A stretch of DNA of 64,000 nt from Cyanophora paradoxa CCMP329 (Eukaryota; Plantae; Glaucophyta). The notes beneath the pieces were generated by a model that did no database searches, was not told where the DNA came from, and worked only from the letters and a program-made list of their open reading frames with translations. The stretch lies in NCBI GenBank assembly GCA_004431415.1, contig QPMI01000578.1:40054-104053 (forward strand), in the 5' to 3' direction. The position numbers and the translations under genes were made by a program. Below, piece after piece: positions 30,290 through 63,649 of this stretch; positions within the stretch are counted from its first letter, which is position 1, and every line of letters begins with the position of its first letter.

Positions 30290-30321
<32 letters not shown>

Positions 30322-42300: not shown

Positions 42301-45300
42301 TCGGTGATCCGGCTGCGGCCCACGCAGGTTCGACAGCCGTTACAACCGGGGTGAACTCGACGGCGCTGGAGTATGTGAGAGGTTGCGCTGACACGGTTCG
42401 TCCGTTGACAGTAACCGCTACTGCCGCAGAGCCCGCAGCGCTAGCGGGCAGGCGGCAAGAAATTCTGTTGGGCGACACCGCATTGAAGGAGACGTTGCAA
42501 GCCTTGCCGGCCACGCTGACTGACACGTTCCGCGCATCCGAGCCGAATCCGGATCCATCGAGGCGCAGCATCGCACCTCCGTTGATTGAGGAAGAGGTTG
42601 AAAGGGAGCCATCCGATTTCTCGATCCCCGTCGCAGTCACCGCGTGCTGATATATGAAGGTGGTAGCTGGGTTGGGCACGTTACCGCGTCCCGCAACGTA
42701 CACAACGAGCGGGAAAGTGCCAGCCAGACCCTTGCCGAGAGTGCAGAAGATTGTGTCGTTATCAGGAGCGTCCGAGCGCTGAACGTCTGTTACTATGCAG
42801 CCTGCAGGCCCCACGGTGACGATGTATGGCTCGGCAGCGTCCACGCCAGTGAGGTCTGGCAACGTGCCCTTGATTGCCAGGCTACTTCCTTCGGTGCCCG
42901 AAGTGGGCTCGACCGAGACAATGGTAGAGCCATCGGTGACATCGATCCCGCAGAGCGGAGCGATGGTGTCGAGGCAGACGACGTCAGCGCCGCCGATCGA
43001 GCTCAGGACGTACGTTCCCAGCGCCGACTCTGGGACGGACTGCATGTCGCACCAGAGCTCGCCAACGGAGATGTTCAGCACAAGACAGTCCAGAAGAGTC
43101 GAGTTTTTCTTCAGCGTGACCCGCGCTTGCTGCGCTGAAGGGTTCACCGTTCCGACAAGGCCCAGGCGAAGATGCGTGCCTCCAGTAAACAGAGTCTTTT
43201 TGCTGGACATCGAGGTTACGTGGGCCGCGAACGTGTACGCAAGGTCCCCGCTGGCCGCGCCGACGTCGGGGAACACGACCGACAGGTTGAAACTGCCTGG
43301 CCGGCCTGCGCCCGCAAGGCACTCGATGTGAGTGCTGTTGAAGGCGGTGGCGTCCACAGTGCATTCAACCCCGCCCATCGCAACTCTCGGTTGCTTCGAA
43401 GAGAGGTCGAAGCCAGTGCCTTCAATAGTAACGGCCATGCTTGCCGCGCCGATCGTGGGGCGAACGGAAGTGATCGAAGGCGTGCGGGCTGCGATTCCGA
43501 GTGATTAATCACTAGCTATATAGAAATTACGGACTTATTGAGCATGTAATCAGCGATCGCTTATATGCACCAGGATCAAAAGAGTACGAAAGCAATGTGC
43601 CGGTCGCGACATCTCGCATCGGCACCTGCAGCTGCACATCTCCAAACAGGACGGAAGTCGCGATCACGCTGTGGGTGATGCCGGCGACGGGGTCCGCGCT
43701 TGCCGCCGTCGGAGTGCATACCAATGCCTTCCGAGCCGCAGATACGACGGCGCACGACACGTTCGCAGACGGGCCTTGGAGCGTGACCTCGGACAGTTGG
43801 GATCCGGTGGGGAAGCCGCTACCAGCGAACGTGATGAAGTTGCGACCGAGAAAAGAGCCAGAAGTGGGGGACACGCTCGAGATGTCTGCGTCAGGCGTGA
43901 GAAAGAGCTCGCGTTTGCAGGTGATCAGGCGGTAGATTTGAATGCATATGCTCACATGTGCCAACGGAAACAGTCACTGCACTCGAAGACCGGCCGTAAC
44001 TGGACGTCAGAACGGCGACTCGCTGGTCCCCAATCGGAAGGCGATCTCGCACAACGCAGAACAGAGCTGTATCATTTGAGAGGTTGGAGTCGATTTGGCA
44101 ATTTACATCGCCGATACTAGCTGAAATAGCGCTGGTGAGCTTCGTGCCGACGATTGTGAAGCTAGTCGATTCTCCGAAAGATCCGATCGAATCAGGAGTA
44201 ATGCTGGTCACACTTGGCGTGGAATCTGCGGGACAGTTCTGAAATCACAAACGTGCAAATTCGAATCCATGAAAAGGGCCGGGCGCGGGCTCACCCGCGG
44301 AGGTAGAGACTGCTCCAACGAGCTGCCTCGTCTGTCCGCTGATTGTGACAGTGAGACCATAGGTATTTGCACTCAAGGCCGGGGCGGTGCAGATGATGCT
44401 TTCGTAGCTCACGACAACAGCCGAACAAGGCTCCCCGCCGACAGTAACCGAGACTTCCGACGTATTTGTGACGGGGCCCATCGCAGCGCCAACAATGGTG
44501 AAGTTGTTTCCGCCTACATCAAATTAAACGTCAAGAAGGCCGCGAGAATGTCAAGCACAGTAGCGCACCCAGCACGCCGACAGACGTTGGAGTCACGGAA
44601 TCGACCCCTGCAGAAATGCTATCGGCGAGAATACGAAGAATCGAAAGAACATGGAAGTATTTATAAAATTAGGCGCACGGAGATTGTACGTGAACGTCGC
44701 GGAAGACCTGCTCAACCCCAGCGGAAGGACGTTGAGGCTTACGGAGTACAGACCCGCAACGATGCGAGGGAGGGTACACGAGACGACCGTGCTCGAGGCC
44801 GCGAAAGCGCTGCACGCTTCCTTCCGGCTGCCTTGGATGAGGTGCACGCTAACGTCGTAGGTCCCGTTGAGCGTCTTGAAGTCGCCGGTCAGCGTCATCG
44901 TCTCACCACCGACGCCGGAGGTTGGGGAGATAGAGTTCACGACAGCCGTCGCCTCTGCGTCGAGCAATGATCATGAGAAAGGAAGCTAATTTATTTCACA
45001 GAACTTCATATTTTCTCTAGATCTGCAGCGCTGATTGTTGAGCGGATGTTCGCACCGCTCGCGTAAGAGAGACTGCAGCTGCTGTTCTCGGAGGGGCGAC
45101 AGTAGGCTTGTATATTGTTGGACCAGACTTGTACCTGCGGAGTTGTTTCTGCGGGGCGGAGGTGTCAGAACATGAGCAAGTAATTGCAAGCCACCACGAA
45201 GCGAAATGTGTGCACCGACGGTTGACAGCATCTCAGCGGGTATAGGCGCAAACAGAACGCCGCCGCGAATGACTTCTGACACGGAAACGGCGATCGTATC

Positions 45301-47842
45301 GTTAAGGTCCGAATTCAATGAATTCTGCAGTCGAAGGTTGGAAGCATCTACGACGAGGTCAGGAAGGTCGCCCGGCAGGTTCTTGAATTTCATCTGAATT
45401 TCGGGGCTCGAGGTCAGAGCCGGCTGACGAGACACAGCAGAGCGCACGCGGGCCCGGGGCCGGCGCGCGTACCCTGTAAGCTGTGCTCGGGCAGAGCGTG
45501 CGAGACGTGAAAGAGGCCTCCTTTGTCACGGCAACGTCGAGGTTGTCGAGCAGAAGAGCGTTGCTGAGGGAAGCTGCGTCCGTGTCCCAGGCGTACGGGC
45601 CGGCGCTTTGAATCCGCTTGCCGCTCAGCGGGGCCCACGAGGAGCTAATATTCCACGTCCCGGTTACGTTGGTCTCCACCGAACGAACCTTGCTTGCCGA
45701 AGCGCGTACATCTCCGGAGTCGGAGGTAGAGAACGCGGGCACGGGTGAGCACGTCTTGACGGAAACCTTCGCAGCCATCAGCCATCATGATCAATTTTTA
45801 AACATTGCAACTGATCGATTGACGCGCAAGGCCGCACAGTGTACTGGTACTTCACAGTGTCTCCAGAAGAAAGGTCTTCACGGGTGACGTCCACGCCATG
45901 CACCCAATCTGACGCGTACGGCCATGTCGGTGTAAGTTATATAATTATAAAATCACCTGTTCTGAACACTTTGAAACTAAAGCTCAAGCTCGGGCTTCAA
46001 ATGGCGCACCGCTTGGTAGAGTAGAAATGGACACGTCGTCAATGTGCCACGGTCCTGAAAATTGCGAAACATGCACAGTTAGGCTGCTTAGCTTGTGTGC
46101 AGATTTATAATTAGAAATTAGAGTATATCAAGTCGGGAACCTAGCAGAGTATTGACATTGTCGTGATGGAAAATCATAGATCTGATAAAGTGCGATCTGG
46201 AGCCACGATATGCGTCGAGTTGGGCGTCGAGGTCGATGCATGCACTGCGCAGAAGAACTCAAGTGAGCGTGCCGAGGCGCGACATCAATTCAAGGGTGGA
46301 GGAGACGGACTATCGCCAGGTGTTATCAGCGACGATGTTGGGCCATCGAGCGACCTCGAAGTAATTGTTTGGGCGCACTGCCCTGATAGGCATTGTCATC
46401 GCCACAGACCTCCAGCCCTCATCAACAATTTCAACTGTTTCGGGGTGCACGTGTAAACCATTAGGATGTTGGTGCGGGGCGGCCGGGGCCAAATTAAAGA
46501 TGTGCATTTATACGTAGAAGTATGCGCCCAGATCGAATCCGTGCGCACCAAGCATGTTCGCTCTGGAGGTAGGGGGGATCTTGTACGCCATGCAGACCAC
46601 GGGGAACTTTTTCCTGCATTGAGAAGGTCATTGAAAGTTTGTATACAAGTACTCATAACTGACGATCGCGATGAGACCGCAACTCACGTGTCGTATGAAG
46701 AACCGCTCAAGCCGGGGCGGCTGAGCCAGTTACCATTCTCGAAGATGCGCGTAGACAGCGATGACGTCGGCGGAAAATACACGGAGCTCGACCCTGTATG
46801 CGCATCCGTTGTGTTCCTTCTGGGCCCTGTGTCTGAATTGCGCGCAGGGTACGACTGAACTGTCGCTCCAGTCTCGAAACTGTCGTGGAAAAGCAGCTGC
46901 GCCTTGGTCCCTCGGATAATTTTATCCTGCCGGTGTGTGTTGAGCATTGAACTTATCGCGTCCTTCATCTGATCAGCCGTTGCCGTGGCAGGTACGGAGA
47001 CAGTCACTGTCTGCTCGCCAAACTTGATAGAGACGGTCATATTTGGCGGCGTCGCGGAAGCTGGAAAATCAAAGGTGATTGTCTGTACGTCGGGCGCTAT
47101 CCGGGTTGCGACGGTCAGAGTCTGGACCTCATCAAATGCCTCCATTCCCCCGTTGTGAACGTCGACTTTTCCGAGCTGCGCCTCGTTCGCCAACGGAGCC
47201 CTGTAGCAGCAATTCATTATATATATAGAGGGCAACGGTAAAACGCTGTTAAGATCTCTAGAACTAGGCTTACCCCATCCTGACGGAGATAGTATGCAAA
47301 GCGCTACCGCCGCTTTGTACTTGAAGACTTCTCATGAAAAGTTGCTCCCCCGCGGTCAGATAGAAAGTCTGGGATGTCTGCATGCATGCAGGTCATCGAA
47401 GGAACGAGCCTCGGTATTCAAGGCAGAACCGTTGAACAGAACAAGATTAATACCTGCGATGCGAACTTCCAGGTTTCGTACGCCCACGTGGAACCCGGGT
47501 TCTCGGCGATTCTAGTGAGATTCTGCATTGACGGGCCCGCCTCGAGCTCTGAATTATCGTCCGAGCCTGGGATTGCGGGACTTAGATTCAGAGCGCGCGC
47601 GTTCAATTAGTAAACAAAGATGAACTAACACAGGTAAAAGGTGTACGAAGTCGTGTACGGGGCCGTAAAAACCATGGTCATCCGTTGGCCAGTGTTCGAT
47701 TCCCAGTTCCGAGGTTGCTCGTCCGCCGCTCCCAGAATCTTGACGAGGTACGGTGGCGAGCTCGCGTTGCTCATACGGATGCGTAGTTGAGCGAGCGTGA
47801 CCGGACTCAGATTGTTCCACCTCTCCAGTCTCACGCCTCGCA
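28773..47842 (-). CDS. Fibrocystin/PKHD1L1-like giant cell-surface protein (PA14, multiple IPT/TIG, two G8 domains, beta-helix repeats) with C-terminal CAP domain, (SP)n stalk and single TM helix; 5' end not found
   Basis: PA14-like [23 protein letters not shown] (~47640-47840). IPT repeats ([24 protein letters not shown]; [15 protein letters not shown]). G8 [46 protein letters not shown] (~41100-41370); second G8 ~36150-36510. [50 protein letters not shown]; stop at 28773. Some frameshifts, e.g. ~32355 and ~30775. Confidence 0.8.
30110..31035 (-). repeat. Coding tandem repeat (~42-bp unit) encoding (SP)n-TETP, a hydroxyproline-rich-type stalk
   Basis: ggcgtctcggtcgggcttggcgacgggctcgggctggggctc repeated about 20 times. 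Confidence 0.9.
31045..31545 (-). other. CAP/SCP/PR-1 domain within the giant gene (two exons)
   Basis: [27 protein letters not shown]|[24 protein letters not shown], i.e. the GENL and GHFTQ-like CAP motifs. Confidence 0.85.
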
Positions 47843-48290
47843 CTGGGAGCCAGGAATTAAGTTTACCACATGGTAAACTTGCAACTTCACTCACTTAGGG
47901 CTGACTTTACCACACCTGTCTTTACCCCACCTAGGAAAGCCGCGCGGGGGAGCACTGCTGCCGTGCTAAATGTGCTTAGCTAGGCATAAGTGCATGGGAT
48001 CCATTGAGCGCCGATGGCCCGGTAGCTTCTGTGGTCCGTCGTGGATGCGAGCACAACTCGTCAAGAGAGCGACGCATGCGGGCTGCCTTGACTGGTTCAA
48101 GTGTTCTAAAAGGTCGTTTAGAGACGATTTGCAGCTTTTAAGGGGAGGTTGTTGGGCGGCCCGACCTCGGCCAACTTCACCCAGGCCCGACCATTATGAG
48201 CTGGGGCGCAGCGCACAGCGCTTTGAATGCGGTAAGCATTGATTTCAGCTACGTTACAACCGAAGTACGGCTGCCACATCGGTGCTCTTG

Positions 48291-48724
48291 AGACCGATGG
48301 CTGCCAATGGTTGCGTACCGAACGCTCAGACCGAGCGCCGCCGAGGTAGCCGGCGGTGCTAACGCCTCTAGCTAGCTAGATCGCGTGCTCTAGCTAGTTC
48401 TCCGACCGCCGGGTGCCGCCGTTGGAGCCTTGCTGGTGCGGTGGTCGGACGGGTACCCCCTGCGAGTAGTTCCCCCGGGCAAAGTCGCCGGGGCAAAGTC
48501 GCCGGGGCAAACTTGCCGGGGCGAAGTCGCGGTTTCCGGAGCGCAGGATCTGGAGCTGTGTTCTGCTAGCGTCCAAGTGCTGTCGGCGTGGCAAGCGGTC
48601 AAAGTGCTGTCGGCGTGGAAGCGTGGCACGTGGCGCTCGAAAAGGTGCGCCGGAGGCCTTCTTTCCGCACCCATAGCGGCCTTGCGCGTGCGTCCGTGCG
48701 GCCTCCCTTGACAGGAGCGTCTCT
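48291..48724. repeat. Dispersed element X, copy 1 (~430 bp; internal 14-bp array gggcaaagtcgccg)
   Basis: Near-identical to 50976-51414, 54563-54893 and 57866-57962. Confidence 0.9.
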
Positions 48725-48729
48725 CGCGC

Positions 48730-49879
48730 GGGCAGCTCCGACAGCGGAGTAGGCAGTCGGCTGCTTCTTCAGGCGCGGCGGTCTCGGCGATCGCTACTGC
48801 GATGTCGGCGGAGCCAAACCGCTCCGTCGAGGTGAGCGTTTTCGCGGACTTGCGGTACTACCCGTGGGGCATCCAGGACCCTGAAGAGACGCAAGGTACT
48901 TGTCGCTTTTGCGACCAGGATGCCATACCATAGAAAACCCCTGTGCAGTTCCTGTGCGAGGCATGGCTGTGCGATTCACGATCAATGTTTCGGAGTCGTG
49001 GCCGGAAGCGTTAGTGGCCGATGTGTGCCGTGAGTATTTCGTGCCCAAATCCAATGTAGCGCTGTATTGGTACAACCCAGAAACCAATGGATTCGAGCGG
49101 CCGGTGCGAAAGTTCCTTGCGTCTGACGATGATTTCTGATGCGGCTTCCGCGAATTCACGCGTGCGCGTGCATGCGCACAGACATCGAAACCACAGGGAC
49201 CATCTCCAGGCGATCTCTTCTACCTCACGGGCGACCAATTTCCGCCGGGAGCGGAGCCCGCACGATACCTGGCAAGATTGGCCGCCCGTTTCTCAAAGGC
49301 ACCAGCGACGGCAGCGACGCAGAACAGCGATGCTCTAGATATAACTTCGCTCGTGCCGCCACCGCTCGACACGCGCGGACTCCTTTGTCTGCGCGCGACG
49401 CCACCAGTCGAGAATATTAATGAAGGAAACAGCTCCGTAGCGGTGCATGTTGTAGCGGACGATTGGAGAATTATGTCAGGTGCCCATTTATCCCGTTTCA
49501 GAGACATTTCTTACAGAATTAATGGGCCTGTGCAGATCTTGTGCAAGTCAATGATCCGGATTCGGGTCGTGGCCGGACGCGCTGCTGGCGCGGGCGTGCA
49601 GCGAGTTTCTCGTACCGAAAAACAATGTAGCGCTGTATTGGTTCAACCCAGAAACCAGTGGATTCGAGCGGCCGGTGCAAGCTTTCTTTGCGTCTGACGA
49701 TGATTTCTGATGCGGCTTCCGGATCCGCGAATTCACGCGTGCGCGTGCATGTGCACAGACATCGAAACCTCAGGGACCATCACCGGGTGATTTCTTCTAC
49801 CTCGCGGGCGACCAGTTCCCGCGGGGATCCGGAGAACGAGCGCAGGCCTCGAACTACCTGTCGCGAATGCGAGCCATGA
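48730..49879 (+). CDS. Family member 1: two tandem copies of the shared ~110-aa domain, no recognisable H3-like tail (frameshifted as assembled)
   Basis: SVEV.VFAD.., VRFTINVSESWPEALVA..LYWYNPETNGFERP|TSKPQGPSPGDLFYL, then NEGNSSVAVHVVAD..SG|PVQI. Intron positions match the other copies. Confidence 0.55.
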
Positions 49880-50270
49880 TTGCTCTGGAAAACATCCGCT
49901 CAATGGCGACGTATAGTGCTAGCTAGCTTCATTATTCCTGATGCACTACGCGTACGGCGCCGGCTTCGTCTCGAATACGAATTCGACCAGCATGTATATT
50001 CTCTAGTGGTTTTCGCATACATGGCTCTCTAGAGAATTCGAACTCTTCGATTTATGCGACCGCTAGCGCTCCGCGGCAGCGTTGTCCCAAGGCCGATACG
50101 CTCATTTGCGGCAAAGGATTCGAATTAAGAAAAATACAGCAATCTCTGCGCAGACGAATTCGAATCTCTGTTCCGCTCAGCGGCTAGCTATAGCGTGCAT
50201 GGCGCCGGCGGCCACGACTTCGAATAAGATGCAGCTGTCGGGCCGCTAGGGGCCTTGAAACGGGCAATAG

Positions 50271-50918
50271 CTAGGATCCGAAAACGGTCGCCAGGAAGGG
50301 CGCGTGCTCGACTTCTGGGATCACCGAATCCTCGCGACGTAGTACAGATCATCCGGGATGGCCCTGGACTCGACCTCTGTGCACGCGCAAGCGTGAATTC
50401 GCGAATGCCGCATCATGATCAGAAATCGAGGGAAGACGGAAAGATATCTTGCACCGGCTCGAAGTACTCGGCAAAGAACTCGAGGTAAATGAAGCACCGA
50501 CTTGCTGGGTCGTATCGATACATCATCAGCGCATCAGGGTGCGCGTGGTATGTGCTGCGGACGAGTTCACGGTACGCAGCCTCCAGAAGATCTGTCTGCC
50601 ACGTCTCTGAAACATAGATCTTCAATCTAACAGGCCCTGCGCTGTTTAGATTAGGGCACAAGCTTAAGGCATCGATGCAACCGTGGTCGCACCTGTCATA
50701 TCAGTGATGCCCACCGGAAGGGGCCGGCAGTCCCCGAGAACGCGCACCTCGACAGAGCTGCCCGCGTTCTCGAGCCGCGATCGCGGCGCGTACAGAGCAA
50801 TCAGCGCTTCCGACTCGGCGACCTGCTCTTCTGTTGGCTCTGGTACTGGTGGCGCCGACCGCGGCTTCCGTGAAGTAACGAGCTGTTTTCGAATACGTTT
50901 TCCCCATGCGGTAAGCAT
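50271..50918 (-). CDS. Family member 2: degenerate H3-tail-like N-terminus plus shared domain (3 exons)
   Basis: GKRIRKQLVTSRKPRSAP (cf. H3 GKAPRKQLATKAARKSAP), then PTEEQVAESEALIALYAPR..SSVEVRVLGDCR..MTG|PVRLKIYVSETWQTDLLEAAYREL..YRYDPASRCF. Confidence 0.65.
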
Positions 50919-50975
50919 CGATCTCAGCTACTTTACAAACGAACTACGAGCGCCAAGTTGGTGGTCTCGAGCTCG

Positions 50976-51414
50976 AGACCGATGGCCGCGTACCGAACGC
51001 TCAGACCGAGCGCCGCCGAGGTAGCCGGCGGTGCTAAAGCCTCTAGCTAGCTAGATCGCGTGCTCTAGCTAGTTCTCCGACCGCCGGGTGCCGCCGTTGG
51101 AGCCTTGCTAGTGTGGTGGTCGGACGGGTACCCCCTGCGCGTAGTTCCCCCCGGGCAAAGTCGCCGGGGCAAAGTCGCCGGGGCAAACTTGCCGGGGCGA
51201 AGTCGCGGTTTCCGGAGCGCCGGATCTGGAGCTGTGTTCTGCTAGCGTCCGAAGTGCTGTCGGCGTGGCAAGCGGTCAAAGTGCTGTCGGCGTGGAAGCG
51301 TGGCACGTGGCGCTCGAAAAGGTGCGCCGGATGCCTTCTTTCCGCATCCATGGCCATGGCGGGGTTAAGCTGCGCGTGCGTCCGTGCGGCCTCCCTTGAC
51401 AGATGCGTCTCTCA
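50976..51414. repeat. Dispersed element X, copy 2, between divergent genes
   Basis: Sequence identity to copy 1. Confidence 0.9.
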
Positions 51415-51417
51415 GGG

Positions 51418-52330
51418 ATGGATGCACACGAGGAGACGAAACGCGAGTTCGAAGAGAGCGGCCAGGAGCGTGCGGAGAAACGCCAGCTGGAGACTTTCCA
51501 AGACGCCGGGGCGAACTTTCCGGAGCGAAGTCGCATGAGCGCTATTAAGCGCCCGCGTGCCGGAGATGCGTATGATGCGAAGGACGCAAAGGATGAAGTA
51601 CGCGCGGTCACACTTCATATCGCTACATCCAGCGTGCGTCTGCTCGCTCGCGCTTCGAATTCTTTGCTCGCTCGGCCACAAATTTAAACCACGCGCGCAG
51701 GAGATGCCCGTGGTCACTCTCGAAATCTCCAGCCCCGCCTGCATCGTCGTGCGGCCCGCCCGCCGGCGCCTCTTGCTCGTTTTCTCAGACCAGCCGGCTT
51801 GCCATTGGCACAGGACCCGGAGCAGAGCACCTTCAAGCCCAAGCAGCGGCTGCCGGCAGAGGGGCTGGCCATCATCGAGGCCACCCTGCGTGCCCACCAG
51901 CCCCGCACGGTCGCATTGCGGCTTGAGAAGTGCGCGCGGCTCCCGAGCGCCGCCTCGTGCACTAAGTGCAGCCCGCAGCGCCCGCCTCGAGGACATTCCG
52001 GCATCGCTGCAGGATATCCTCGTCGAGAAGGTTGCGCACATCCACCTCGTCGGCGAGACCACGCTGCACCCGTTCCCAGAGGAGAACGCAGAGTCGGCCC
52101 TCGTCTATGCTACTATGTCGGACCTTCGCAAGCGTGGGCTGCTCACGATGACCATGTCGCCCGAGGTGCGGCACGGCCATGGCCAGCTAGCGCCCTCCCT
52201 TTCCTCGACCCCGCCCATCTGCAACCCAGGTACCCTGGCTCGTGGACCCCCTCAAGTTCGTTTGCGGCGAGTTGCCACCCTACAACAAGATTTTCCAACG
52301 GTTTAACACCTTCATGGAGCACATCTACGG
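51418..52330 (+). CDS. Hypothetical multi-exon protein starting MDAHEETKREFEES (divergent partner gene)
   Basis: ATG directly after element X. GT-AG-bounded exons EMPVVTLEISSPACIV / DPEQSTFKPKQRL / RLEDIPASLQDILVEK. Same N-terminus as 54898. Confidence 0.45.
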
Positions 52331-52778
52331 CCCCTTCCTGTGAAATCAATCAGGGCAGGCACTCGTTATGCACTACGGCGCCGACATGTAATGCGCTACC
52401 TCAGTAGCTCTGAAACCCTGACTTCAATTAAATAGTGCACGCCTCCGCCTCGCCTATCGCCGGAGTCGACATTAGCAGTTGACGACGCTCAAATGGCAGG
52501 CGCGCGCTTTAGGCGAGAAAGCGCCATCGCTGAGCTACATGAAGCTCTCCACGCGTACATTCATGGGTTGCCGCTGCCCACAAGGGAGCCGACAAGTCGA
52601 CAACCGGCATCTTCGATGACAGGTGCATGCACATGCAGTTTTGCGGTCAAACCAGAATTGAGGAGAAACAGATCAAAAACCAAACCAGAACCAAGCTCGC
52701 CAAGATGTTCGAACCAGGGTGAAAGTGTCCAAATGGATTCCTGGTGCGAGGGTATCCGGGATTAGCTATGTGTCACTT

Positions 52779-53009
52779 GCAGTGATGTGTTCGGCATCGA
52801 TACCGGTATATTCGGATCCAGGGTATTGATTGAGTTTCCAGCTCAATCGCGAGCGTCTGCAGCTGGCATGGCTTATGTGAAGGCAGCACAGAAAACCATC
52901 GTGACATTCTTGTGCATGGTACACTCAAGATCTAAATATCGCGCGCAGTGATGTGTTCGGCATCGATACCGGTATATTCGGATCCAGGGTATTGATTGAG
53001 TTTCCAGCT
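52779..53009. repeat. 65-bp exact direct repeat
   Basis: 52779-52843 equals 52945-53009. Confidence 0.9.
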
Positions 53010-53912
53010 AAATCGTGCGCACACATACATATGTTATTGAGTCCGTTCTGCTAATCCTTATAATCTCTGCGAAATGCACTTGCAGTTTGCGAAATGCGAG
53101 AGCGCAATCCCAAGTTCTTCGAGAGCCTTGAAACAAAGTAGTTTGAATTACACAGCTCTCTCGTCAAGAACTGCTCCACGTGCACCAGCACAAGACGAGA
53201 AGCACATGTTGGTGTCGCATGCAGGTAAAAACCATTGCACGTTAATCAACACATGAATTAATTGAATGTATACGCAGGGTTTCTATTCGCTGTTCCCTCT
53301 TATGCAGTACGTACACTACCAGGAATCTCGATAAATATAGCCAGCGAACAGATCTAGAGCGAAGCTTACAGACGGTATATCTTTCCAATAGACTATTACC
53401 ATCCGGACTTAAGCATTTCCTTGCCTCCCCAAAACTCTATTGCTAGAATAGTTATAGCAATCAGAAGGTCAGGTACATATGCACGCAGACATGCAGCTTG
53501 TTAAAGATCCGGCCGCGGAGGTAAGGCTCCTAGGAAACGGTACAGGTAGAATTTGTAATGTAGAACTTAGGTAAGGCTTGGTAGCCCGAGTGTATACGTA
53601 GTGGTATCCTGTTCGTGTCGTAGATTTGTTGTGTAATATGATGTGTTAAATATATTTGAATCGTTGTGTAAAGTTTCGGATTTCCAAATTCGTGCTGCAC
53701 TACGGCGCCGGCTTCGACTTGGATCCGAGACGAATGCGACCAGCATGACTACTATATAGTTCACGTCTCCTGCTACTCAGAATTCGAATTCGAGAAAACA
53801 ATACAGCAATCTCTGTGCAGAAGAATCTGTGTTTGGCTAGTGCGCATGGCGTCGGCGACCACGAATAAGATGCAGCTGCGGACCCGTACTAGGTCCTAGG
53901 GATTTGCACTGG

Positions 53913-54535
53913 CTAGGATCCGGAAACGGTCGCCAGGAAGGGCACGTGCTCGATTTCGGGACCACCTCATGCCTCGCGACGTAGAACAAATCATCCGGGA
54001 ATGGCCCTGTACTCGACGCCTGTGCACATGCACGCGTGAATTCGGGAATGCCGCATCAGAAATCAAGGTAAGAAGCAAAGATCGCTTGCACCGGCGGCTC
54101 GAAGCAACGGCTTTCTGGATCGTACCAATAGAGCGCAAGCCGCTAACATTGCCTACAGAGTTGCATTCGCAGTCCAGGTCGAAGTAAGCCTGGATCAGAA
54201 GGTCTGTCTGCCACGACATAGAAACATCTATCCTGACGCGCACTGGCCTGCCTGTTGAGATCAGGCACACAATCAGGGCAACGATGCCGGGTTGCAATTG
54301 CACGTGTGCACCCGTCTTTTCAGTGACGCGTAGCGGGAAGGCCGGCAGTCACCGAGAACCGCACCTCGACTGAGCTGCCCCCGTGCACGAGCCGCGGTCG
54401 TGGCGCGTATAGAGCAATCAGCACTTCCGACTCTGCGATCTGCTCTGCTGTCGGCGGCATGCGCAGCTGTCCCGCTGTCACTCCTGACTTCCTTGCAGCT
54501 TTGGTAGCGAGCTGTTTTCGAGGTACTTTCTGCAT
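53913..54535 (-). CDS. Family member 3: H3(14-28) mimic plus shared domain
   Basis: [18 protein letters not shown] is 14/15 identical to H3 K14-S28. It is followed by PPTAEQIAESEVLIALYAPRPR..SSVEVR and RPVRVRIDVSMSWQTDLLIQAY. Confidence 0.7.
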
Positions 54536-54562
54536 TCTGGAACGCAGTCCGACAGCGAGCGA

Positions 54563-54893
54563 ACCGAGCGCCGCCGTCTTTGGAGCCTTGCTGGTGCGTG
54601 GTCGAACGAGTACCCCCGGCAGGAAGTTCCCCCCGGGCAAAGCCGCCGGGGCAAAGTCGCCGGGGCAAAGTCGCCGGAGCACTGTCGCGGTTTCCGGAGC
54701 GCCGGATCTGGAGCTGTGTTCTGCTAGCGTCCGAAGTGCTGTCGGCGGGGCAAGCGGTCAAAGTGCTGTCGGCGTGGAAGCGTGGCACGTGGCGCTCGAA
54801 AGGTGCGCCGGATGCCTTCTTTCCGCATGCGCACCCATATATAGCGGCCTTGCGCGTGCGTCCGTGCGGCCTCCCTTGACAGTAGCGTCTCTC
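54563..54893. repeat. Dispersed element X, copy 3, between divergent genes
   Basis: Sequence identity to copies 1 and 2. Confidence 0.9.
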
Positions 54894-54897
54894 AGGG

Positions 54898-55730
54898 ATG
54901 AATGCACACGAGGAGACGAAACGCAAACTCGAAGAGAGCGAACAGGAGGTTGATTATGAGCTTGAGACGAGGAAAGCGGCCCGGCGCGTGCGGAGAAACG
55001 TGCGCGAGATGAGGCGTCGCGGCGGCAGCTCGAGAAGCAAGCGTCAGCGGAAGCGGTGGCGGAGATTCATCGACGTCTGCGGAAGGCTGAGGAGCGGGCT
55101 GCAGCCGCCAAGAACGACGCAAGAGCTCTCAGCGACGACGAAGAAGTGGAAGAGCGGCCAAAGGAGGTTCCGTGTCGTACCTGTGTCGAGAACCCATCAT
55201 CCCCACTGTGCATATGCGCCATCATCCTGGGTATCGAAAGTGCCAGCACTTTGCACGAACTCCCTATGGACGTTCGGCCCTTCGCTAATTTGGCGCTTCG
55301 GATTGCCAAGCTCCACCGGCAGTCGCGGGCCTTCGACATCCTCCCCCAGTCGGCGAGGACAGCGATCGCGAAGGAGAAGGTGAGGACACGAATTACTGCA
55401 CCACCCTGATTGAATCTCTGCCGTCGGAGGGGGAGGGAATCTGGACCTGAACAGTGCGCATGGCCTTCTGTTTTAATTTACCCCGAGAAATTTTGCTTTC
55501 ACAGAGCCAGTGATCATGAGCACAGGGGACTCTGGGAGGACATCTGTATGGTCACCCTCGAAGGTTTTCAAGTGGTGAAGAGCCCGCTGCGCATGTTTCA
55601 GCTCTGTGATGGTGGTTTCCGCGTTTGCGATCCTCTTCATCCGTCCGTGGATGAAGCGCTTCGCGACCTCTGCGGACTCTGCCTCAGCAACAGCGACCTC
55701 GAGTTCTTTAGGACATTTCCAAGCGCCTGA
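54898..55730 (+). CDS. Hypothetical protein starting MNAHEETKRKLEES, with coiled-coil and CxxC-x7-CxC segment (frameshift as assembled)
   Basis: Shares its N-terminus with 51418. AEIHRRLRKAEERAAAAK..PCRTCVENPSSPLCIC; second exon ..QLCDGGFRVCDPLHPSVDEALRDL, a 72-bp piece of which is copied at 56907-56978. Confidence 0.4.
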
Positions 55731-56165
55731 AAGAAAAGCAGGCCACTGAACAAGCACGCAAGCACATTTTGCATGACTTTTGACATCTTGCATGTACCTT
55801 TGAACAAGCACGCAATAGTATACTGCAGCTGAAGCTTGAGCACCTCAACCTCGGAACCAACCTCAACGGGCCGGGGCAGGGGGGGCACGTAATTGTATTC
55901 GGAAACTTTAACTCTTCGATGGTTTTCGCATACATAGTTCTCTGGAGAATTCCAACTCTTCGATTTATGCGATCGCGGCCGCGGCAGCCATGCCCAAGGC
56001 GCTCTGAATTCGAATTCGAGAAGACAATACTGCTACCAATCTCTGTGCACAAGAATCTCTGTTCGGCTAGCTTGCATGGCGCCGGCGGCCACCGCTAGCG
56101 TGCATGGCGCCGGCGTGCAATTCGAATAAGATGCAGCTGTCGGACCGCTAGGGCCTTGACACTGG

Positions 56166-56803
56166 CTAGGATCCTGTAACGGTTGCCAGGAAGGGTGCAT
56201 GCTCGACTTCCGGGATGATTTCCTTCATTGCCACGTAGAACAGGTCATCCGGGGATGGCCCTGGACTCGACGCCTGTGCGCATGCACGCGTGAATTCGGG
56301 AATGCCGCATCAGAAATCGAGGTAAGAAGCAAAGATCGCTTGCACCAGCGGCTCGAAGCACCGGCTAGCTGGGTCGTACCGATAGAGCGACAGCTCGCGG
56401 CGATCAATGGGCACCGGTGTGCAGCGCAATTCCCGGTACGCTTGGGCCAGAAGATCTTTCTCCCACGTCTTTGAAACATACAGCTTGATTCGCACAGGCC
56501 CTGCGCGTTGCAATTAGGGCGCACTGGCAGAGCAACGATGAACCGGACACATGTGCACCTGTCATTTCAGTGACGCGTGGCCGAGAAGGGCGGCAGTCCC
56601 CGAGAACGCGCACCTCGACAGAGCTGCCCTCGAGCTCGTTCTCGAGCCGCGGTAAACGTCGCGGCGTGTATAGAGCAATCAGCGCTTCCGACTCTGCGAC
56701 CTGCTCCGCTGTTGGCTCTGGATCGGGTACGAATCGTGAAGTAGGCGGTGCTTTCTTGGTCTGGGTCTAGTGCCGAGAACTTTGCGGGGAGCTTGCTTGA
56801 CAT
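56166..56803 (-). CDS. Family member 4: degenerate H3-like N-terminus plus shared domain
   Basis: KQAPRKVLGTR (cf. H3 [10 protein letters not shown]); VLGDCRPSRPRVTEMTG|PVRIKLYVSKTWEKDLLAQAYREL..YRYDPASRCFEPL|ASSPGPSPDDLFYVAMKEIIPEVEHAPFL. Confidence 0.6.
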
Positions 56804-57130
56804 TGCTTCTAGAGATGCGCGGCCGCAACGTTAACCCCAATGCCTTAATGTTTACCCCCCGGTGGGATTACCCCCTGGGCATACTGACCGTGACTTCGTT
56901 CGCGATTCAGCTCTGTGATGGTGGTTTCCGCGTTCGCGATCCTCTTCATCCGTCCGTGGATGAAGCGCTTCGCGACCTTCGCGAAATCAATGCCGATACA
57001 TTAAATCGCGACGAAAATTCGAATTGACAAAACGAAGTACAGCATTCCCTGTTCAAATATCGTGCATGGCGTCGGCGGCCATGAATTCCAATAAGATGCA
57101 GCTGTCGGGCCGCTAGGGCCTTGGCACTGG

Positions 57131-57761
57131 CTAGGATCCGGAAACGGTCGCCAGGAAGGGCGCGTGCTCGACATCCGGTATTACCGAATTCCTCGCCACG
57201 TAGACCAGGTCATCCGCGAATGGCCCCAGCGGACTCGACGCCTGTGCACATGTTCGCGTGAATTCGCGAATACCGGATCAGAAATCGAGGTAAGAAGCAA
57301 AGATCGCTTGCACCAGCGGCTCGAAGCACCGGCTAGCTGGGTCATACCGATACAGATCCAAAGTGCGGAAATCGATTACGTACGCATGACAGTTCAGGTC
57401 CATGTACGCACGGGCCCGAAGAACTCTCTGCCACGACATTCGAAAGTTTGAAATATCTATCGTGACTCGCACAGGCCCTGCGCTGTTGCGATTAGGGCTG
57501 TTGCGAGGCGAAGATGCAACCGGGTTGGACCTGTCATTGAAGTGACGCGTAGCGGGAAGGCCGGCAGTCACCGAGAACGCGAACCTCGATAGAGCTGCCC
57601 TCGTTCTCGAGCCGCGGTCGCGGCGTGAATAGAGCAATCAGCGCTTCCGACTCTGCGATCTGCTCTGCTGTCGGCTGTCGGGACTCTGTCGCTGCTGACT
57701 TCCGTGAAGCTTTGGAAGCGAGCTGCTTGCTGCTTGCTGCTGCTTCGTCGCCGCGCTGCAT
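57131..57761 (-). CDS. Family member 5: H3(18-29) mimic plus shared domain
   Basis: KQLASKASRKSA is 10/12 identical to H3 [12 protein letters not shown]. Then PTAEQIAESEALIALFTPRPRLENEGSSIEVRVLGDCR and LDLYRYDPASRCFEPL. Confidence 0.65.
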
Positions 57762-57865
57762 GTTCGAAATCCGCAGGAATGCGCAGGCGCACCGTGATCT
57801 ACTGCGCGCAGGCATGCGCAGGCATGAAATCATGAGCGCCAGACTCGATCTACTCAATCTGCTGG

Positions 57866-57962
57866 GTGCCGCTTTTGGAGCCTTGCTGGTGCAGTGGTCG
57901 GACGGGTACCCCCCGGCAAAGTAGTTCCCCCGGGCAAAGTCGCCGGGGCAAAGTCGCCGGGG
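57866..57962. repeat. Dispersed element X, copy 4 (truncated)
   Basis: ttggagccttgctggtgc..ggtcggacgggtacccc..gggcaaagtcgccggggcaaagtcgccgggg. Confidence 0.85.
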
Positions 57963-58329
57963 ACACTTGGAGCGAAGACGCGAGGAAGCTCCAGTACGCA
58001 AATTTAGAGTATGCAAACCCGCCCGAACCGTGGAATCAACCATTTGAACGCACTGCCGCATACGCAGGTCAAAACCTCGTCCGGAGCGCCCTGCAGCGGA
58101 GCACCTCGGTTTAAAGCTCCGGTTCTCACAAGTAGAGGTAGGCAAACCTGCAGATCCGTGAATCAACCATTTGAACGCAGCGCGGCACACGCAGGTCGAA
58201 ACCTCGGCCGAAACCTCTTGCAACTCCGAGCTCAAGCGGGTACTTGGGGAGAAGCGAGAAGCTCCCGCAGTAATGCACACGCAAAGCTGTTCACTCGAGC
58301 CCACGCACTTGCAGATGTGCGCCCGTGCC

Positions 58330-60230
58330 TGTGCTGTGTGAATGCACGTGGACTTGCAGCTGAGTGTGCAACAGGTTGAGAACACGTTCAGAGCCCTCCT
58401 TTTGGATTCGAAGAACACTCCGCTCTTCATTCGTCCGAAGTGGCTTTTCGGTTCGCCGAAGGAGCAGGGATATCGTTCCTTGGAATCGCGTCACCCAATT
58501 TCCGGATATGCATTGACAGTACCTTCCTCGCATCGGACAACCACAGAGCAACTTTGGTGCCTCTGTTTGATCCAAGCATCGTCTACTGCGGGGTGTGAGT
58601 AACAGCACGGAGCACGTCGAAAGGATTCGTAAAACTCTTGATATCCAGTGGCCGTCACTTCGGGCGATCGAAATCGACGACCTAGCCACCGCAGCGAAGC
58701 TGGACGGAACCTTGCAGAAAGACAGAAGACAAAAAGGTCTCAAATCCGGAATCCAGATCTTTCTACGGAATTTTTGCGTAAGGCGTTCGAGAAACCTGAG
58801 GATTTCAGATTCTTCGGGACTGGCTGGGACAGCGCCGAAGTGGACGAGACGAGGCTGGCCTTCGCTTTTCGGGAATTGGAAACAGGCATCGGGATTATCA
58901 AAGTCATTTTAAAAGGGTGGGGTTGAAGCTGACTTCTGCAAAGTTTTCGCTATCACTATCTATCGCTCTCGCAAACTTCCGCTATCGTTTAGTATCCGGA
59001 GACGAGCAGGAGGTTTGTCCTCGACGTCTGTGATAAAGAGGTGAGCTTGCTTTACTTCTGCTTTTTCAACCCGGCTGTTCTGCTGTTAATTATAATCGCA
59101 GGATGCACGTGTTGCTCTGGAGCTGAGCAAGTCTGAATGCGTCGACGGTGGAAAAGATGCATCCGCTCCGACACTGACACCTTCGATGCAAAAAGAAAAG
59201 GATGCTTCGAACAAACCTTTCCCTCCCATTTCATTCGTCCCAGCGCAAGGTGCCTCAAATCTCCAGTCGGAATGGTCTTCAACCTATGGAGGCTGTCACA
59301 AACACACTGGTGACACGATGAAAGACAGTCTATCTATCCCTCGGATAAGTTGAATTCCGGCTCGCAGTACCGGTTCTCAGAATGCCGAACTTCGGATCCG
59401 GAGGAGATTCGATGCTTGCAGCAGCAGGTGAAATCACTTCAGGATGATAACGCCTTACTTCGACAAGCGAAAGAGCGCGTCGACGGTAAATGCCTTTTTT
59501 GCGTTCAGCTATAACTGCTTCAGTTAATTAGTATCCGCGCGTAATCCCCGCTGCAGCCCCGACTGCAGCGGCTGCAAGAAAACGCTTTCCTGTCGCCCAG
59601 CTGCAGCGGCTGCAAGGTCGAATCGCTCAGGGGCGCCTCGTTCATTCTTCTTTGAAACGTCTGCAGGCCTCCAGAATGAGAATGCTTCCCTGCTCGCCCA
59701 GCTGCAACGGCTGCAAGGTCGAATCGCTCAGGGGCGCCTTCGTTCATTCTTCTTTTGAAACGTCTGCAGGCGTCCAGCATGAAAATGCTTCCCTGCTCGC
59801 CCAGCTGCAACGGCTGCAAGGTCAAATCGCTCAGGGGCGCCTTCGTTCATTCTCTTTTGAAACGTCTGCAGGCGTCCAAATGAGAATGCTTCCCTGCCGC
59901 CCAGCTGCAACGGCTGCAAGGTCAAATCGCTCAGGGGCGCCTTCTTTCATTCTTCGTTCGAAACGTCTGCAGGCATCCAGAATGAGAATGCTTCCCTGCT
60001 CGCCCAACTGCAGCGCTGCAAGGTCGAATCGCTCAGGGGCGCCTTCTTCCAGTCTCCTCTTGAAACGTCTGCAGGCGTCCAGAATGAGAATGCTTCCCTG
60101 GTCGCCAACTGCAGTGGCTGAAAGGTCAAATTGCTCGGGGCGCCTTCTTTCATTCTTCGTTTGAAACGTCTGCAGGCATCCAGAATGAGAATGCTTCCCT
60201 GGTCGCCCAGCTGCAGCGGACCAATGGTGT
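58330..60230 (+). CDS. Hypothetical multi-exon protein ending in coiled-coil repeats (structure uncertain)
   Basis: Protein-like exon fragments (QVENTFRALLLDSKNTPLFIRPKWLFGS; LRKAFEKPEDFRFFGTGW; EEIRCLQQQVKSLQDDNALLRQAKE) lead into the 102-bp repeat. Confidence 0.3.
59596..60220 (+). repeat. ~102-bp tandem repeat, about 6 copies, probably coding (NENASLLAQLQRLQG)
   Basis: Unit starts at 59596, 59697, 59800, 59900, 60003, 60104 and 60206. Confidence 0.9.
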
Positions 60231-60951
60231 TTTTTTAGACTGCTTTTCGATTTAGGTCTCGATTTGACCGTTTCCCGTGCGTGTAGCTGTGAATGCAGCT
60301 CCCCAAGCGCAACTGCAGCGGCTGACCGGTTTCCACTTCGCCGTTTCTCGGAATTGGGATTTCTGAGTGACTGATAATGACTGCAGCTATGAATGCGGGT
60401 CTCCAATCTCAGAAGAAAGCTCTTCGTGGTACGCTATCTCACTCCTCGCGGTACATTCAATTTCCGGCCTTGAGTATGGGTATCTTAGATGAAGTCACGA
60501 CGCTTCGTGGTACGGCGGTTTCCTCCCCGATGATTTTATGAACGTCGCGGTACATTTATGTTACACCTCGTTCGCGATTCTTTGTAAATGTCAGCTGAAA
60601 TTGCGACACTGCGAGGTATGGCGGTTCCCCTCGATGCATTTTATTTACTCCGATGCTGATATTGTGATCAGCAAAAATCGACGACCTGGAGGATGCTGAA
60701 TTCCAGCGCCTGTTCGAAGGCGTGCTCAATATTTAGACGTGTGATCTTCGTTTAAATCACAATTGAATTTCAGTATTGCACTGAACCTGCTGTTCAAATA
60801 CGATTTAATCGGGAAGCTTCCACACAGTGCATACTCAGGCCACGGTCATAGAGGAAGGAGGGGGGGAAGAGAAGGGGGGGGAGTGCCGAACTTACCGCGC
60901 CGCAAAAAAAGCCGGCTTGGCGTGCAGTGCTGCCACAACTCGAAGCTGCTG

Positions 60952-61580
60952 ATGGCGAAAGTGAAAGAGAGAGCGCGTATGTCTACAGGCGGAAAAGCTC
61001 CTCGAAAGAACCTCGCACAGCGGCCGCGGCCGCCGACAGCGGAGCAGGTCGCGGAGTCGGAAGCACTGAATGCTCTTTACGCGCCACGACCGCGGCCCGA
61101 GAACGAAGGCAGCTTTGTTGACGTACACATTCTCGGCGACTGCCGCCTGCCCGCTACGCGTCACTGCAATGACAGGTGCAAATGTACACCGATTCACCGT
61201 TGCTCTGCCAGTGTGCCGTGAACTCAACAGCGCATGCGCAGGGCCTGTGCGAGTCACGATCCGTGCTTCGGACTCGAATGCGTGGAAGAGCGAGCTACTG
61301 GACCTGGCGTTCGAGGAGCTGCACTGCAGTACGCATGTGCACCTCGAGGAGCTGGTGCTGTATCGATCTCGTACGACCAAGCAGGCTGGTACTTCGAGCT
61401 TCCGTGCAAAGCGATTGTTGCGTCTTACGGTGATTTCTGATGCGGATCTCGCGAATTCACGGTGCGCGTGCACAGGCGTCGAGTCCGGGCCATCCCCGGA
61501 GATCTGTATTACGTCGCGAGGAGGATATCATCCCGGAAGTCGAGCATGTACCTTTCCTGCGATCAATCAGGAATAGTTGC
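60952..61580 (+). CDS. Family member 6: H3(1-21) mimic with K9M plus shared domain
   Basis: [23 protein letters not shown] vs H3 [23 protein letters not shown]. Then PPTAEQVAESEALNALYAPRPRPENEGSFVDVHILGDCR and |GPVRVTIRASDSNAWKSELLDLAFEEL. Small indels in the assembled frame. Confidence 0.7.
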
Positions 61581-61699
61581 AAGTGCCGGCATCCCTTCCC
61601 TAGTCCGGATTTCGTAGCCAAAAATACGCGGATGTATATACGTATACGCGCGGCACGGATACAACAGGAGCGCCTAATTGCCAGCGCTGTAGTGCAACA

Positions 61700-62330
61700 C
61701 GAGCGCCTCAAATTCCTCCTACGGCGCTCTATGTAGTCTCCATCTAAATCTAGATCTAGAGGGTTGCTCGCATTTCGCGCTCTGCGAAGTCCACAACCAG
61801 ATCCCGCACTAGCGAGCGTGTCACCGTTGCCACTGGCCACGGGCGGGAGTGAAAACAGCACTAACCTGATGGCCGTCATGCTGCACTGCTCGCTGTACCG
61901 ATTGATGACGTCAATTCATTTCAAGAGAATTCTGCGAGCTTGCGCGAGCCTCGCGCCAATGCTGTCGTAGTATCTGCAGACCTTGCCGTCGATAACCAAG
62001 AGTGTCCAGTGTCGTCGGTTGTTGACGGGGACGAGAGCGCGTGTGCTGGTGCCATTCAAGTGCTCGAGTAACGCTTCTAGTAGGATTCAGCGTCGTGGAG
62101 GCGAGCGGATGTGCGATGAACCAATTCTGTGTGACTGCCTCCTGGCCGCCGCCGCGCGGATGCAAACGAGCGCGCTCTCGATTGCGCTCGATGACAGCCA
62201 CAAATCCCGGCTGCAGCTGAAGCTGAGCTGATGCCGAACTAGATCTGCGCTAACGATCTTCGGCCGCGCCTTGACTGTGCCCAGCTCCTCCAACTCAGAA
62301 GAGGGCTCTGGGTCACCACACTGCAGCTGT
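61700..62330 (-). pseudogene. Ulp1/SENP-like (peptidase C48) cysteine protease, degenerate or mis-assembled
   Basis: Motifs in the canonical order: DLWLSSSAIE (~62200), ALVPVNNRRHWTLLVIDGKVCRYYDS (~62040-61960), WQR..CGIW (~61830-61797). Frameshifts or stops lie between them. Confidence 0.6.
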
Positions 62331-62916
62331 CTTTGCCGCCGTATGCGCTTCTTAAAACTACAGGAGAGGGCTTCGATCTGAATCATCACATTGCATATCC
62401 CGCCGGCGCTTCGCTGCCTTCGCGGAGGCCATCTGCGAGATCCGGAGAACGGACGACCTAGGCCTGCAGGGGAACAAGCCCGCATGAGTTCCAGCGGCGA
62501 ACTGTAAAGGCAGAGCACGAAGCGGGCGTGCACATTCACGAATGCCGAAGTCGACGGCCTATATCTATCAACGTTCAACGTTCAGCGCCTTGATCATGAA
62601 CAGGCCACGCGGCGCCCGAGTCCACGTCAGCGAGGCTGCGGCGATGGCTAAGCCTCCGCTAGCTGTTTTACGCGCTCTACTCGATCTCCGACCACCGGTC
62701 ACCGCCTGAAAGCTTCGAGACTTGCTGGCGCATTGAGCGCACGTGTACCCCCACTAGTCCATCCCGGGCCGTCCGGGCCGTCCCGGACGAGACCAAGATC
62801 CAGCAATCTAGCGTCTGCACAGGCAGCGCGGCGCGAGCTCGAGGAGCGCGACTCCCCAGTTTCCAGTTTTCCGACAGATCTAGCGACTCTCGGAATTTCG
62901 AGGCGCGCTCGCTCTA

Positions 62917-63544
62917 ATGGCGAAGACAAACAAAAGGCGCGAAAGTACAACGGATCGATTCCTCAGAAGAAAATGCCTACCAAAGCTCAGAAAGCGAAGT
63001 CAGAGCCGGAGCCCGACCCGTCAAAGAAGCAGGTGCCCGAGAACGAGGGCAGCTCTAAAACTGTCGAGGTGCGCGTTCTCGGCGACTGCCGGCCTGCCCC
63101 GCTACGCGTCACTTCAATGACAGGTGCATGCCCGGTTGCATCGTTGCTTCTGCTAGGTGCCGTGACTCAACAGCGCATGCGCAGGGCCTGTGCGAGTCAC
63201 GATCCGTGCTTCGACTCGAATGCGTGGAAGAGCGAGCTACTGGACCTGGCGTTCTTGGAGCTGCACTGCAGTACGCATGTGGATGACCGCGGCACTCTGG
63301 CGTGCATTGGTACGACCCAGCAAGCCGAACCTTCCAGTCGTTGGTGCAAGCGATCTTTGCGTCGTATACGTACGGTGATTTCTGCTGCGGATCTCGCGAA
63401 TTCACGGGTGCGCGTGCACAGGCGTCAAGGGCGCAGGGGCCATCCCGGATGATCTGTTTTACATACGAAGGAATACAGTTGATCCGGCCGTCGAGCATGT
63501 ACCTTTTCCTGGCGGATCCGGACGCAGTGATAGAGCTTGACTAG
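62917..63544 (+). CDS. Family member 7: diverged full H3-tail mimic plus shared domain
   Basis: Adding one A in an A-run gives MAKTKQKARKYNGSIPQKKMPTKAQKAKS. Then ENEGSSKTVEVRVLGDCRPAPLRVTSMTG|PVRVTI..AWKSELLDLAFLEL..YDPASRTF. Confidence 0.6.
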
Positions 63545-63649
63545 CCCATGGCCGTGGCTGGAATTGCGTTTGCATGTTCGTGCTCTCATGTATGAATTGT
63601 TCACTTCGAGTGACTGTCTAGCTGAAATGATTGACAATTGCATGATCGA

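Follow-up and report, generated by a model that had tools for sequence, protein, structure and literature searches.

Apparent histone H3 tails on a local family of predicted ubiquitin-like proteins in Cyanophora paradoxa

Why should proteins that are not histones begin with the tail of histone H3? The question is raised by a cluster of genes in a 64-kilobase (kb) stretch of eukaryotic DNA from Cyanophora paradoxa CCMP329 (contig QPMI01000578.1, positions 40,054 to 104,053), called here the window, within which all family copies were counted. At 48.7-63.6 kb of the window, seven loci on both strands carry eight copies of a single domain, and in six of these loci the domain is preceded by a basic tail. 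Sequence comparison supports the view that the tails are real derivatives of H3 borne by a non-histone protein family. Mimicry of histone tails is already known; what appears to be new is an amplified family of apparently captured tails on a predicted ubiquitin-like domain.

The family and its H3-like tails

The initial annotation had described seven loci that share one domain of ~110 residues and two intron positions, and this description is borne out by self-BLAST, by alignment, and by a profile scan of the window, which returned exactly eight domain matches. The gene plan consists of a basic tail, a PTAEQ linker (present, as annotated, in five copies), and then the domain, which is spread across three exons. 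Both intron positions are common to all eight domain copies, and the splice ends are kept in 8/8. Intron 1 (53-66 nucleotides (nt), phase 1) is deduced from its GT..AG ends, from the restored frame, and from its neutral-like ratio of nonsynonymous to synonymous change (dN/dS, omega), whereas the splicing of intron 2 (72-84 nt, phase 0) is shown in one RNA contig, from copy 50918. RNA joints elsewhere in the window likewise reveal short GT..AG introns. The start codons of all copies are inferred. The loci, each named after one of its end coordinates or a nearby position, and the block that lies upstream of several of them are as follows.

60952..61580, + strand: copy 60952; H3 1-23-like tail with K9M codon at 60979-60981, PTAEQ linker, domain; introns 61176-61241 and 61404-61475; 3' end approximate
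53913..54535, - strand: copy 54535; H3 14-38-like tail with near-perfect K14-S28 at 54529-54485, linker, domain; introns 54311-54248 and 54091-54020, with indels listed in DNA contigs
57131..57761, - strand: copy 57761; H3 18-31-like tail, linker, domain; introns 57530-57478 and 57313-57242
50271..50918, - strand: copy 50918; degenerate tail, linker, domain; introns 50692-50637 and 50454-50377
56166..56803, - strand: copy 56803; degenerate tail (APRK block, frameshifted in the assembly), linker, domain; introns 56558-56501 and 56345-56274
62917..63544, + strand: copy 62917; diverged full-length tail (H3 1-28, K9 kept), linker lost, domain; introns 63124-63184 and 63344-63421; UGC at 63383-63385 where other copies have UGA
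48738..49926, + strand: locus 48730; tail-less, two tandem domain copies, likely start 48802; introns 48896-48948, 49104-49181, 49480-49535 and 49675-49758
48227..48725, no strand assigned: shared upstream promoter-like block with 14-nt repeats, found also at 50906-51468, 54564-54948 and 57861-57982

Two tails match H3 directly, as had been claimed. The tail of 60952 matches H3 1-23 (E 2e-4, 15/23 residues identical), and over H3 7-18 it is identical at 11 of 12 positions, the sole change being K9M, that is, a methionine at the target lysine with its flanks kept. A DNA contig that spans the K9M codon (60820-61145) has 0 substitutions relative to the assembly and 6 gaps of unlisted position. 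The tail of 54535 matches H3 14-39 (E 4e-4), with 14/15 identical residues over K14-S28, and its similarity to H3 continues to P38, the proline where the linker begins. The tail of 57761, previously given as H3 18-29 and here as 18-31, matches weakly (E 0.55), but all 10 of its 10 listed matches are H3.

The remaining three tails are tied to the family through these: at the DNA level, 50918 (P=0.001) and 62917 (P=0.002) resemble 54535, and 56803 resembles 60952 in protein (P=0.0005), its DNA similarity not being significant. Judged by this similarity to the confirmed tails, all six are homologous. The suggestion that the copies sample different segments of H3 holds in that the windows differ; however, the tails overlap around H3 14-21 and form nested trims rather than disjoint samples. 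Most simply, the six tails would go back to a single capture of H3 codons 1-38, later altered by deletions and by the gain of new start codons. All six are basic, with 6-9 Lys plus Arg per 18-30 residues. Both full-length tails (60952 and 62917) begin, if the inferred start codons are right, with Met-Ala, and in both R2 is replaced by Lys, which argues against bait for K4 or PHD readers. K4 is present in 60952; in 62917 its reading depends on the position of a missing base.

A histone H3 variant was considered and rejected, since no histone-fold domain lies behind the tail: the matches in the PDB end at the tail, there is no histone match in Pfam, and the model of the domain has beta strands. 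A search for the tail among longer proteins, a weak one with only 23 candidates, found nothing.

Several known systems invite comparison. EZHIP (CXorf67), reported as an endogenous, K27M-like inhibitor of PRC2 with shown activity (10.1101/585729), resembles 60952 in that a histone-like peptide with a lysine-to-methionine change sits on a cellular protein other than a histone; as that report presents it, EZHIP concerns the K27 enzyme, whereas 60952 would be a captured H3 N-terminus at K9, within a multi-gene cluster and on a predicted ubiquitin-like domain. PAF15/KIAA0101 (PF15715), as described in PMC7060239, is another non-histone protein whose basic N-terminus resembles H3. Membership of 60952 in that family was rejected, however, because its match to PF15715 (E 0.13) reaches 13.5 bits against a cut-off of 23.4 and is limited to the tail, the remainder being unrelated. 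The H3TMs of PMC8166343 are non-histone proteins that start like H3, and 60952 shares their Met-Ala and K4; by that account, H3TMs depend on Arg-2, a position held by Lys here, and mimic ~4 residues by convergence, whereas the tails of this family would be captures of 15-38 residues. The viral mimics NS1 (ARSK) and ORF8 (ARKS), in the account of PMC10208167, and NOP16 (10.1101/2023.06.13.544862) likewise place an H3-tail motif on a non-histone protein, but these are described as four-residue motifs in single genes, whereas the family seen here is cellular, spliced and amplified, and its tail copies are long. In the literature covered, which included few subscription journals, no amplified family was found in which a ubiquitin-like domain carries captured H3 tails.

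The upstream promoter-like block is present four times, which suggests that duplication took place locally, in tandem as well as in inverted form; its left end at 48227 contains the 5' remnant of a gene of the 50918 type. The 25 longest of the 104 inverted pairs in the window are all paralog copies, and in the domain tree 60952 and 62917 are sisters (support for inner nodes, 36-100%). Locus 48730, correctly annotated as tail-less with a doubled domain, retains a linker remnant interrupted by a stop (48738-48752) and so is likely to have come from a linker-bearing ancestor. In the window as a whole, no terminal inverted repeats stood out, and no paired CACTA ends or tRNA gene were found. A motif starting with CACTAC and followed by a GC-rich palindrome occurs just past gene ends at 49944, 52371 and 53698, with no inverted partner found.

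Constraint, transcription and the predicted fold

A GY94 codon model was fitted to the six tailed copies on the fixed domain tree, with codons beside gaps masked. Over domain plus linker (135 codons), omega is 0.65 (P=0.0025 against 1), as opposed to 1.18 and 1.31 in the wrong frames. The linker gives 0.34 (P=0.02), exon 3 gives 0.54 (P=0.03), exon 2 gives 0.72 (P=0.14), and intron 1 gives 0.82-1.15; codon-position counts are significant for exon 3 only. The family is thus under mild purifying selection. The tails evolve fastest, with no sign of an omega above 1, so that positive selection is not shown.

Within the tails, the identities to H3 are clustered, with a run of 13 residues in 54535 (permutation P=0.002) and one of 9 in 60952 (P=0.055). 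In 54535, the core is identical at 14/15 positions and the flank at 2/9 (P=0.0007), the core having been picked after inspection. The K14-S28 block of 54535 is the sole tail stretch that is clearly kept non-randomly. The possibility raised at the outset, that one captured H3 fragment has decayed at the neutral rate, fits the overall level of identity to H3 but not this block.

Most family copies are frameshifted as assembled. DNA contigs differ from the assembly by 44 listed indels at 48000-59400 (12 of them shown) and by 59 at 60820-63620 (12 shown), some of which may represent cross-mapping between paralogs; one DNA contig of 1633 nt has 39 gaps and 1 substitution, and another, at 63316-63415 in copy 62917, has zero differences. 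The frameshifts, checked against the listed indels, are probably assembly error, and they cannot be read as decay because the DNA contigs show many 1-nt indels in this region. With single-base indel errors so abundant at 48000-63620, these genes are likely to be missed or broken in annotation.

RNA evidence comes from 6 of 17 presumed RNA runs, in the form of contigs, whose depth is a poor measure of expression. For copy 50918, an RNA contig of depth 2 splices intron 2 (joint 50376/50455). Presumed RNA runs also gave an unspliced 195-nt contig of depth 3 for 54535, a 235-nt contig of depth 2.3 for 57761 (57678-57912), and a 243-nt contig with exon 3 and 3' flank for 56803; contigs of such low depth (2-3) are likewise found outside the family and may be DNA. 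Copies 60952 and 62917 lacked an RNA contig of their own in three of these runs, and in the three others locus 48730 lacked one across its coding part; nor was any RNA run listed for 53800-63600. None of this is evidence of silence. At least one family copy is transcribed, though apparently weakly. The initial annotation had allowed that all copies might be unexpressed with dN/dS near 1; given the domain omega and the one spliced copy, the family is not dead DNA; the ratio for the tail is not distinguishable from 1.

A neighboring gene at 51418-53618 (+), which lies head to head with 50918, is a well-expressed orphan with eight RNA-supported introns and depth 50-76. Four of these introns lie past its first stop (~52343), a pattern that suggests a spliced 3' untranslated region or a second frame. 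No Pfam match was found among the four exons tested, and a paralog of its 5' end begins at 54898. An RNA contig of depth 75 joins 48491-48638, in the first copy of the upstream block, to this gene at 51475 with non-canonical ends, probably by mis-mapping between the duplicated upstream blocks.

What, then, is the domain? Homologues were sought with exon 2, or with the stretch from exon 2 to exon 3, as query rather than with the spliced protein, and distant relatives may therefore have escaped detection. A word-index search with the exon-2 alignment, limited to longer proteins, found no domain homologue. HMMER against 1.84 billion representatives gave 5 matches, all of them sums over unrelated repeats. 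There was no match in the PDB (by sequence), Pfam, or metagenome contigs, none in the ESM Atlas at >=0.9, and no relative in viral contigs, where two 14-residue matches are due to chance. An AlphaFold2 model of 56803, built from exon 2, intron 2 (with its UGA read through) and exon 3, has a mean predicted local distance difference test score (pLDDT) of 52, with 60-68 at residues 11-50 and 81-90 and 34-42 at residues 51-80. Among 48,161 chains, it is matched best by protein kinase D in its ubiquitin-like dimerisation domain (PKD; 6ra0, Z 6.5, root-mean-square deviation 2.7, 75 residues aligned). Judged from entry titles, beta-grasp domains make up ~45 of the 50 listed matches, and Foldseek ranks E1 ubiquitin-fold domains (UFD) first. 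These results yield a low-confidence prediction of a ubiquitin-like (beta-grasp) fold.

The predicted topology, strand-helix-strand-strand-helix-strand, is that of the PKD (6ra0), RA/RBD, FERM F0/F1, CIDE-N, UBX, PB1 and E1 UFD domains. In contrast to these, the family domain, which is 5-19% identical to them, has no sequence-level family match and no C-terminal diglycine, and it can be assigned to no subfamily. A conjugatable ubiquitin-like modifier was rejected for lack of that diglycine; four copies end in Gly-Ser-stop.

Between 60952 and 62917, at 61919-62086 (-), lies a fragment resembling the catalytic domain of an Ulp1/C48 protease, with His-Trp and Asp motifs. Its match to PF02902 (E 0.021) is under the Pfam cut-off, and no homologue was found; if real, it would put a ubiquitin-like protease beside domains predicted to be ubiquitin-like.

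What the tails may do

The model that we favor, tentatively, is that a local family arose from one capture of H3 1-38 on a ubiquitin-like gene and that its products are low-abundance bait for H3-tail binders. In this model, H3 codons 1-38 would have been captured once onto the gene for the predicted ubiquitin-like domain, which would then have been duplicated and its tails trimmed. The tail may take the protein into the nucleus and engage readers and writers of H3. The tails of 54535 and 57761 would offer the K27/S28 window, and that of 60952 a K9M-S10-K14 window, which would inhibit a SUV39/G9a-type SET domain rather than be methylated by it. The ubiquitin-like domain might form a dimerisation or partner surface, so that several tails would be displayed together, and the tail-less double-domain gene could supply a partner or scaffold. 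Differences among the tails would come mostly from deletions and new starts under relaxed constraint, with a block well kept in at least one copy. As to precedent, Clr4 is reported to be inhibited in vitro by an H3K9M peptide (PMC5030085), and H3K14ub to potentiate strongly the trapping of Clr4 by K9M (PMC8167812). Natural K-to-M histone mimics are known for K27, in EZHIP, and a K9 counterpart carried by a folded, duplicated protein that is not a histone, if true, would be a built-in heterochromatin regulator. Furthermore, the family presents variously trimmed tails on a common scaffold, a natural series with which a decoy role and a nuclear-import role become testable against each other.

A number of observations weigh against this model. 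The tail omega of 0.61 (26 codons, P=0.15) is not different from 1, and the tree length of the tail is 1.7 times that of the domain (4.5 vs 2.7). Both of the best tails (60952 and 54535) are 65% identical to H3, which is within the 56-71% expected under neutrality for the depth of the family. The tails of 50918 and 56803, annotated as degenerate H3, and that of 62917, annotated as a diverged H3 1-28, have no H3 match on their own, so that these assignments stand only by way of the confirmed tails. K9M occurs in one copy, and because the sister copy 62917 keeps K9, the change is most simply private to 60952. RNA depth for the family copies is 2-3, vs 50-76 for the neighboring gene, and a single contig is spliced. 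The fold is open to objections of its own: the 56803 model includes intron 2 read through and lacks the strand encoded by exon 1, which is absent from both models; its best structural Z is under 8; Foldseek gave no match at E<=0.001; and the weaker model of the first 48730 domain (48730a, pLDDT 47) repeats the helix-strand-strand-helix-strand order with the first strand absent.

It is possible, if somewhat doubtful, that the tail is a mere basic patch for nuclear localisation or for affinity to DNA or chromatin, in which case the function would reside in the ubiquitin-like domain while the H3 register is slowly lost. In keeping with this, the six tails remain basic, including those that no longer resemble H3, constraint is tighter on the linker and exon 3 than on the tail, and the part common to most copies is the APRK/KQLA region, which we take to be the importin-binding part of the H3 tail. 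Such a patch would, however, leave unexplained the exact 13-residue run of 54535, which includes uncharged residues.

The initial annotation had instead seen an arms race, and we regard this as unlikely. Here the tails would be positively selected decoys, each tuned to a different K4, K9 or K27 enzyme in a conflict between host and parasite or host and transposon. Their rapid change would suit such a conflict, as would the fact that the best tails, 60952 and 54535, keep different blocks. In addition, K9M is a change reported to trap methyltransferases (PMC5030085). The tail motif shared by 56803 and 60952, despite the pairing of 60952 with 62917 in the domain tree, hints at tail exchange, and the weak Ulp1-like fragment sits within the cluster. 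Ulp1-like proteases are cargo often seen in transposons. Yet omega is below 1 everywhere, the tail windows are nested, R2 is gone from both full-length tails, and neither prominent terminal inverted repeats in the window nor a relative in viral contigs was found; diversification against the K4/K9/K27 machinery is not shown by these data.

Quite unlikely, too, is the view that these are young duplicates in decay, derived from one functional ancestor, with most copies relaxed or dying and K9M a chance substitution. The high omega of exon 2 and of the tail, the remnants at 48227 and 48738, and the weak RNA support would all be expected in that case. The combined exons nevertheless reject omega=1, the splice ends survive in every domain copy, and the frameshifts fall where short-read contigs show many 1-nt indels.

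The more elaborate proposal that the copies address different chromatin enzymes, with 60952 encoding H3K9M together with an imitation of nearby ubiquitin and thus forming a natural trap for SUV39-type enzymes, seems to us improbable. As for a linear mimic of ubiquitylated H3, in which the domain would replace ubiquitin on K14, K18 or K23 and 60952 would imitate H3K9M-K14ub so as to trap a SUV39-type enzyme, it is suggested by the presence of tail and predicted beta-grasp domain in one chain and by the reported effect of K14ub on Clr4 (PMC8167812), but it is highly improbable, as ubiquitin-type chains among the structural matches are 8-13% identical and ubiquitin itself is not the top match, the domain is attached by its N-terminus through a ~25-residue linker rather than by its C-terminus to a lysine, and the five other copies are without K9M.

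Intron 2 and the surroundings of the cluster

A separate puzzle is posed by intron 2, the best-conserved segment of the family. Its length is a multiple of three in 8/8 domain copies, and it is in frame with both exons (for example, 56274-56345 (-) and 63344-63421 (+)). Between the 48730 domains and the rest, its identity is 75-88%, vs 48-69% for the exons, and its omega in the exon frame is 0.41 (P=0.028), as opposed to 1.56 and 1.33 in the other frames. A central in-frame codon reads UGA in 7/8 domain copies and UGC in 62917; the UGA of 60952 reads in frame after correction of listed indels. In the neighboring gene, none of the 8 RNA-supported introns is a multiple of three as assembled. An in-frame stop within such an intron is described as a known safeguard (PMC5014332), but this safeguard fails to explain the slow, codon-like change of intron 2. 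Nor was a conserved RNA structure found, there being zero compensatory changes in 18 predicted pairs. As in a selenoprotein, the UGA aligns with a Cys codon (the UGC of 62917), yet the segment is spliced out in the one RNA contig of 50918. A selenocysteine insertion sequence, sought in canonical forms only, gave no Rfam match up to E 10, and a pattern scan was positive in 1/7 flanks vs 36/200 background windows. Possible readings are an exitron-like segment recently turned intron, occasional read-through, or a selenocysteine site.

The window holds other features besides. At 59578-60219, a unit of 102 nt (34 codons) is repeated in tandem 6.3 times, the copies being 90% alike, with Cys-x-x-Cys in one frame and no family assigned. 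A large multi-exon gene at ~33900-47300 (-) contains IPT/TIG repeats (Pfam E 2e-52, 41543-43504) and is, by eye, fibrocystin-like. Finally, at 29743-31324 (-), a long Ser-Pro repeat beside a stretch that looks, by eye, like CAP/SCP marks a probable surface glycoprotein.

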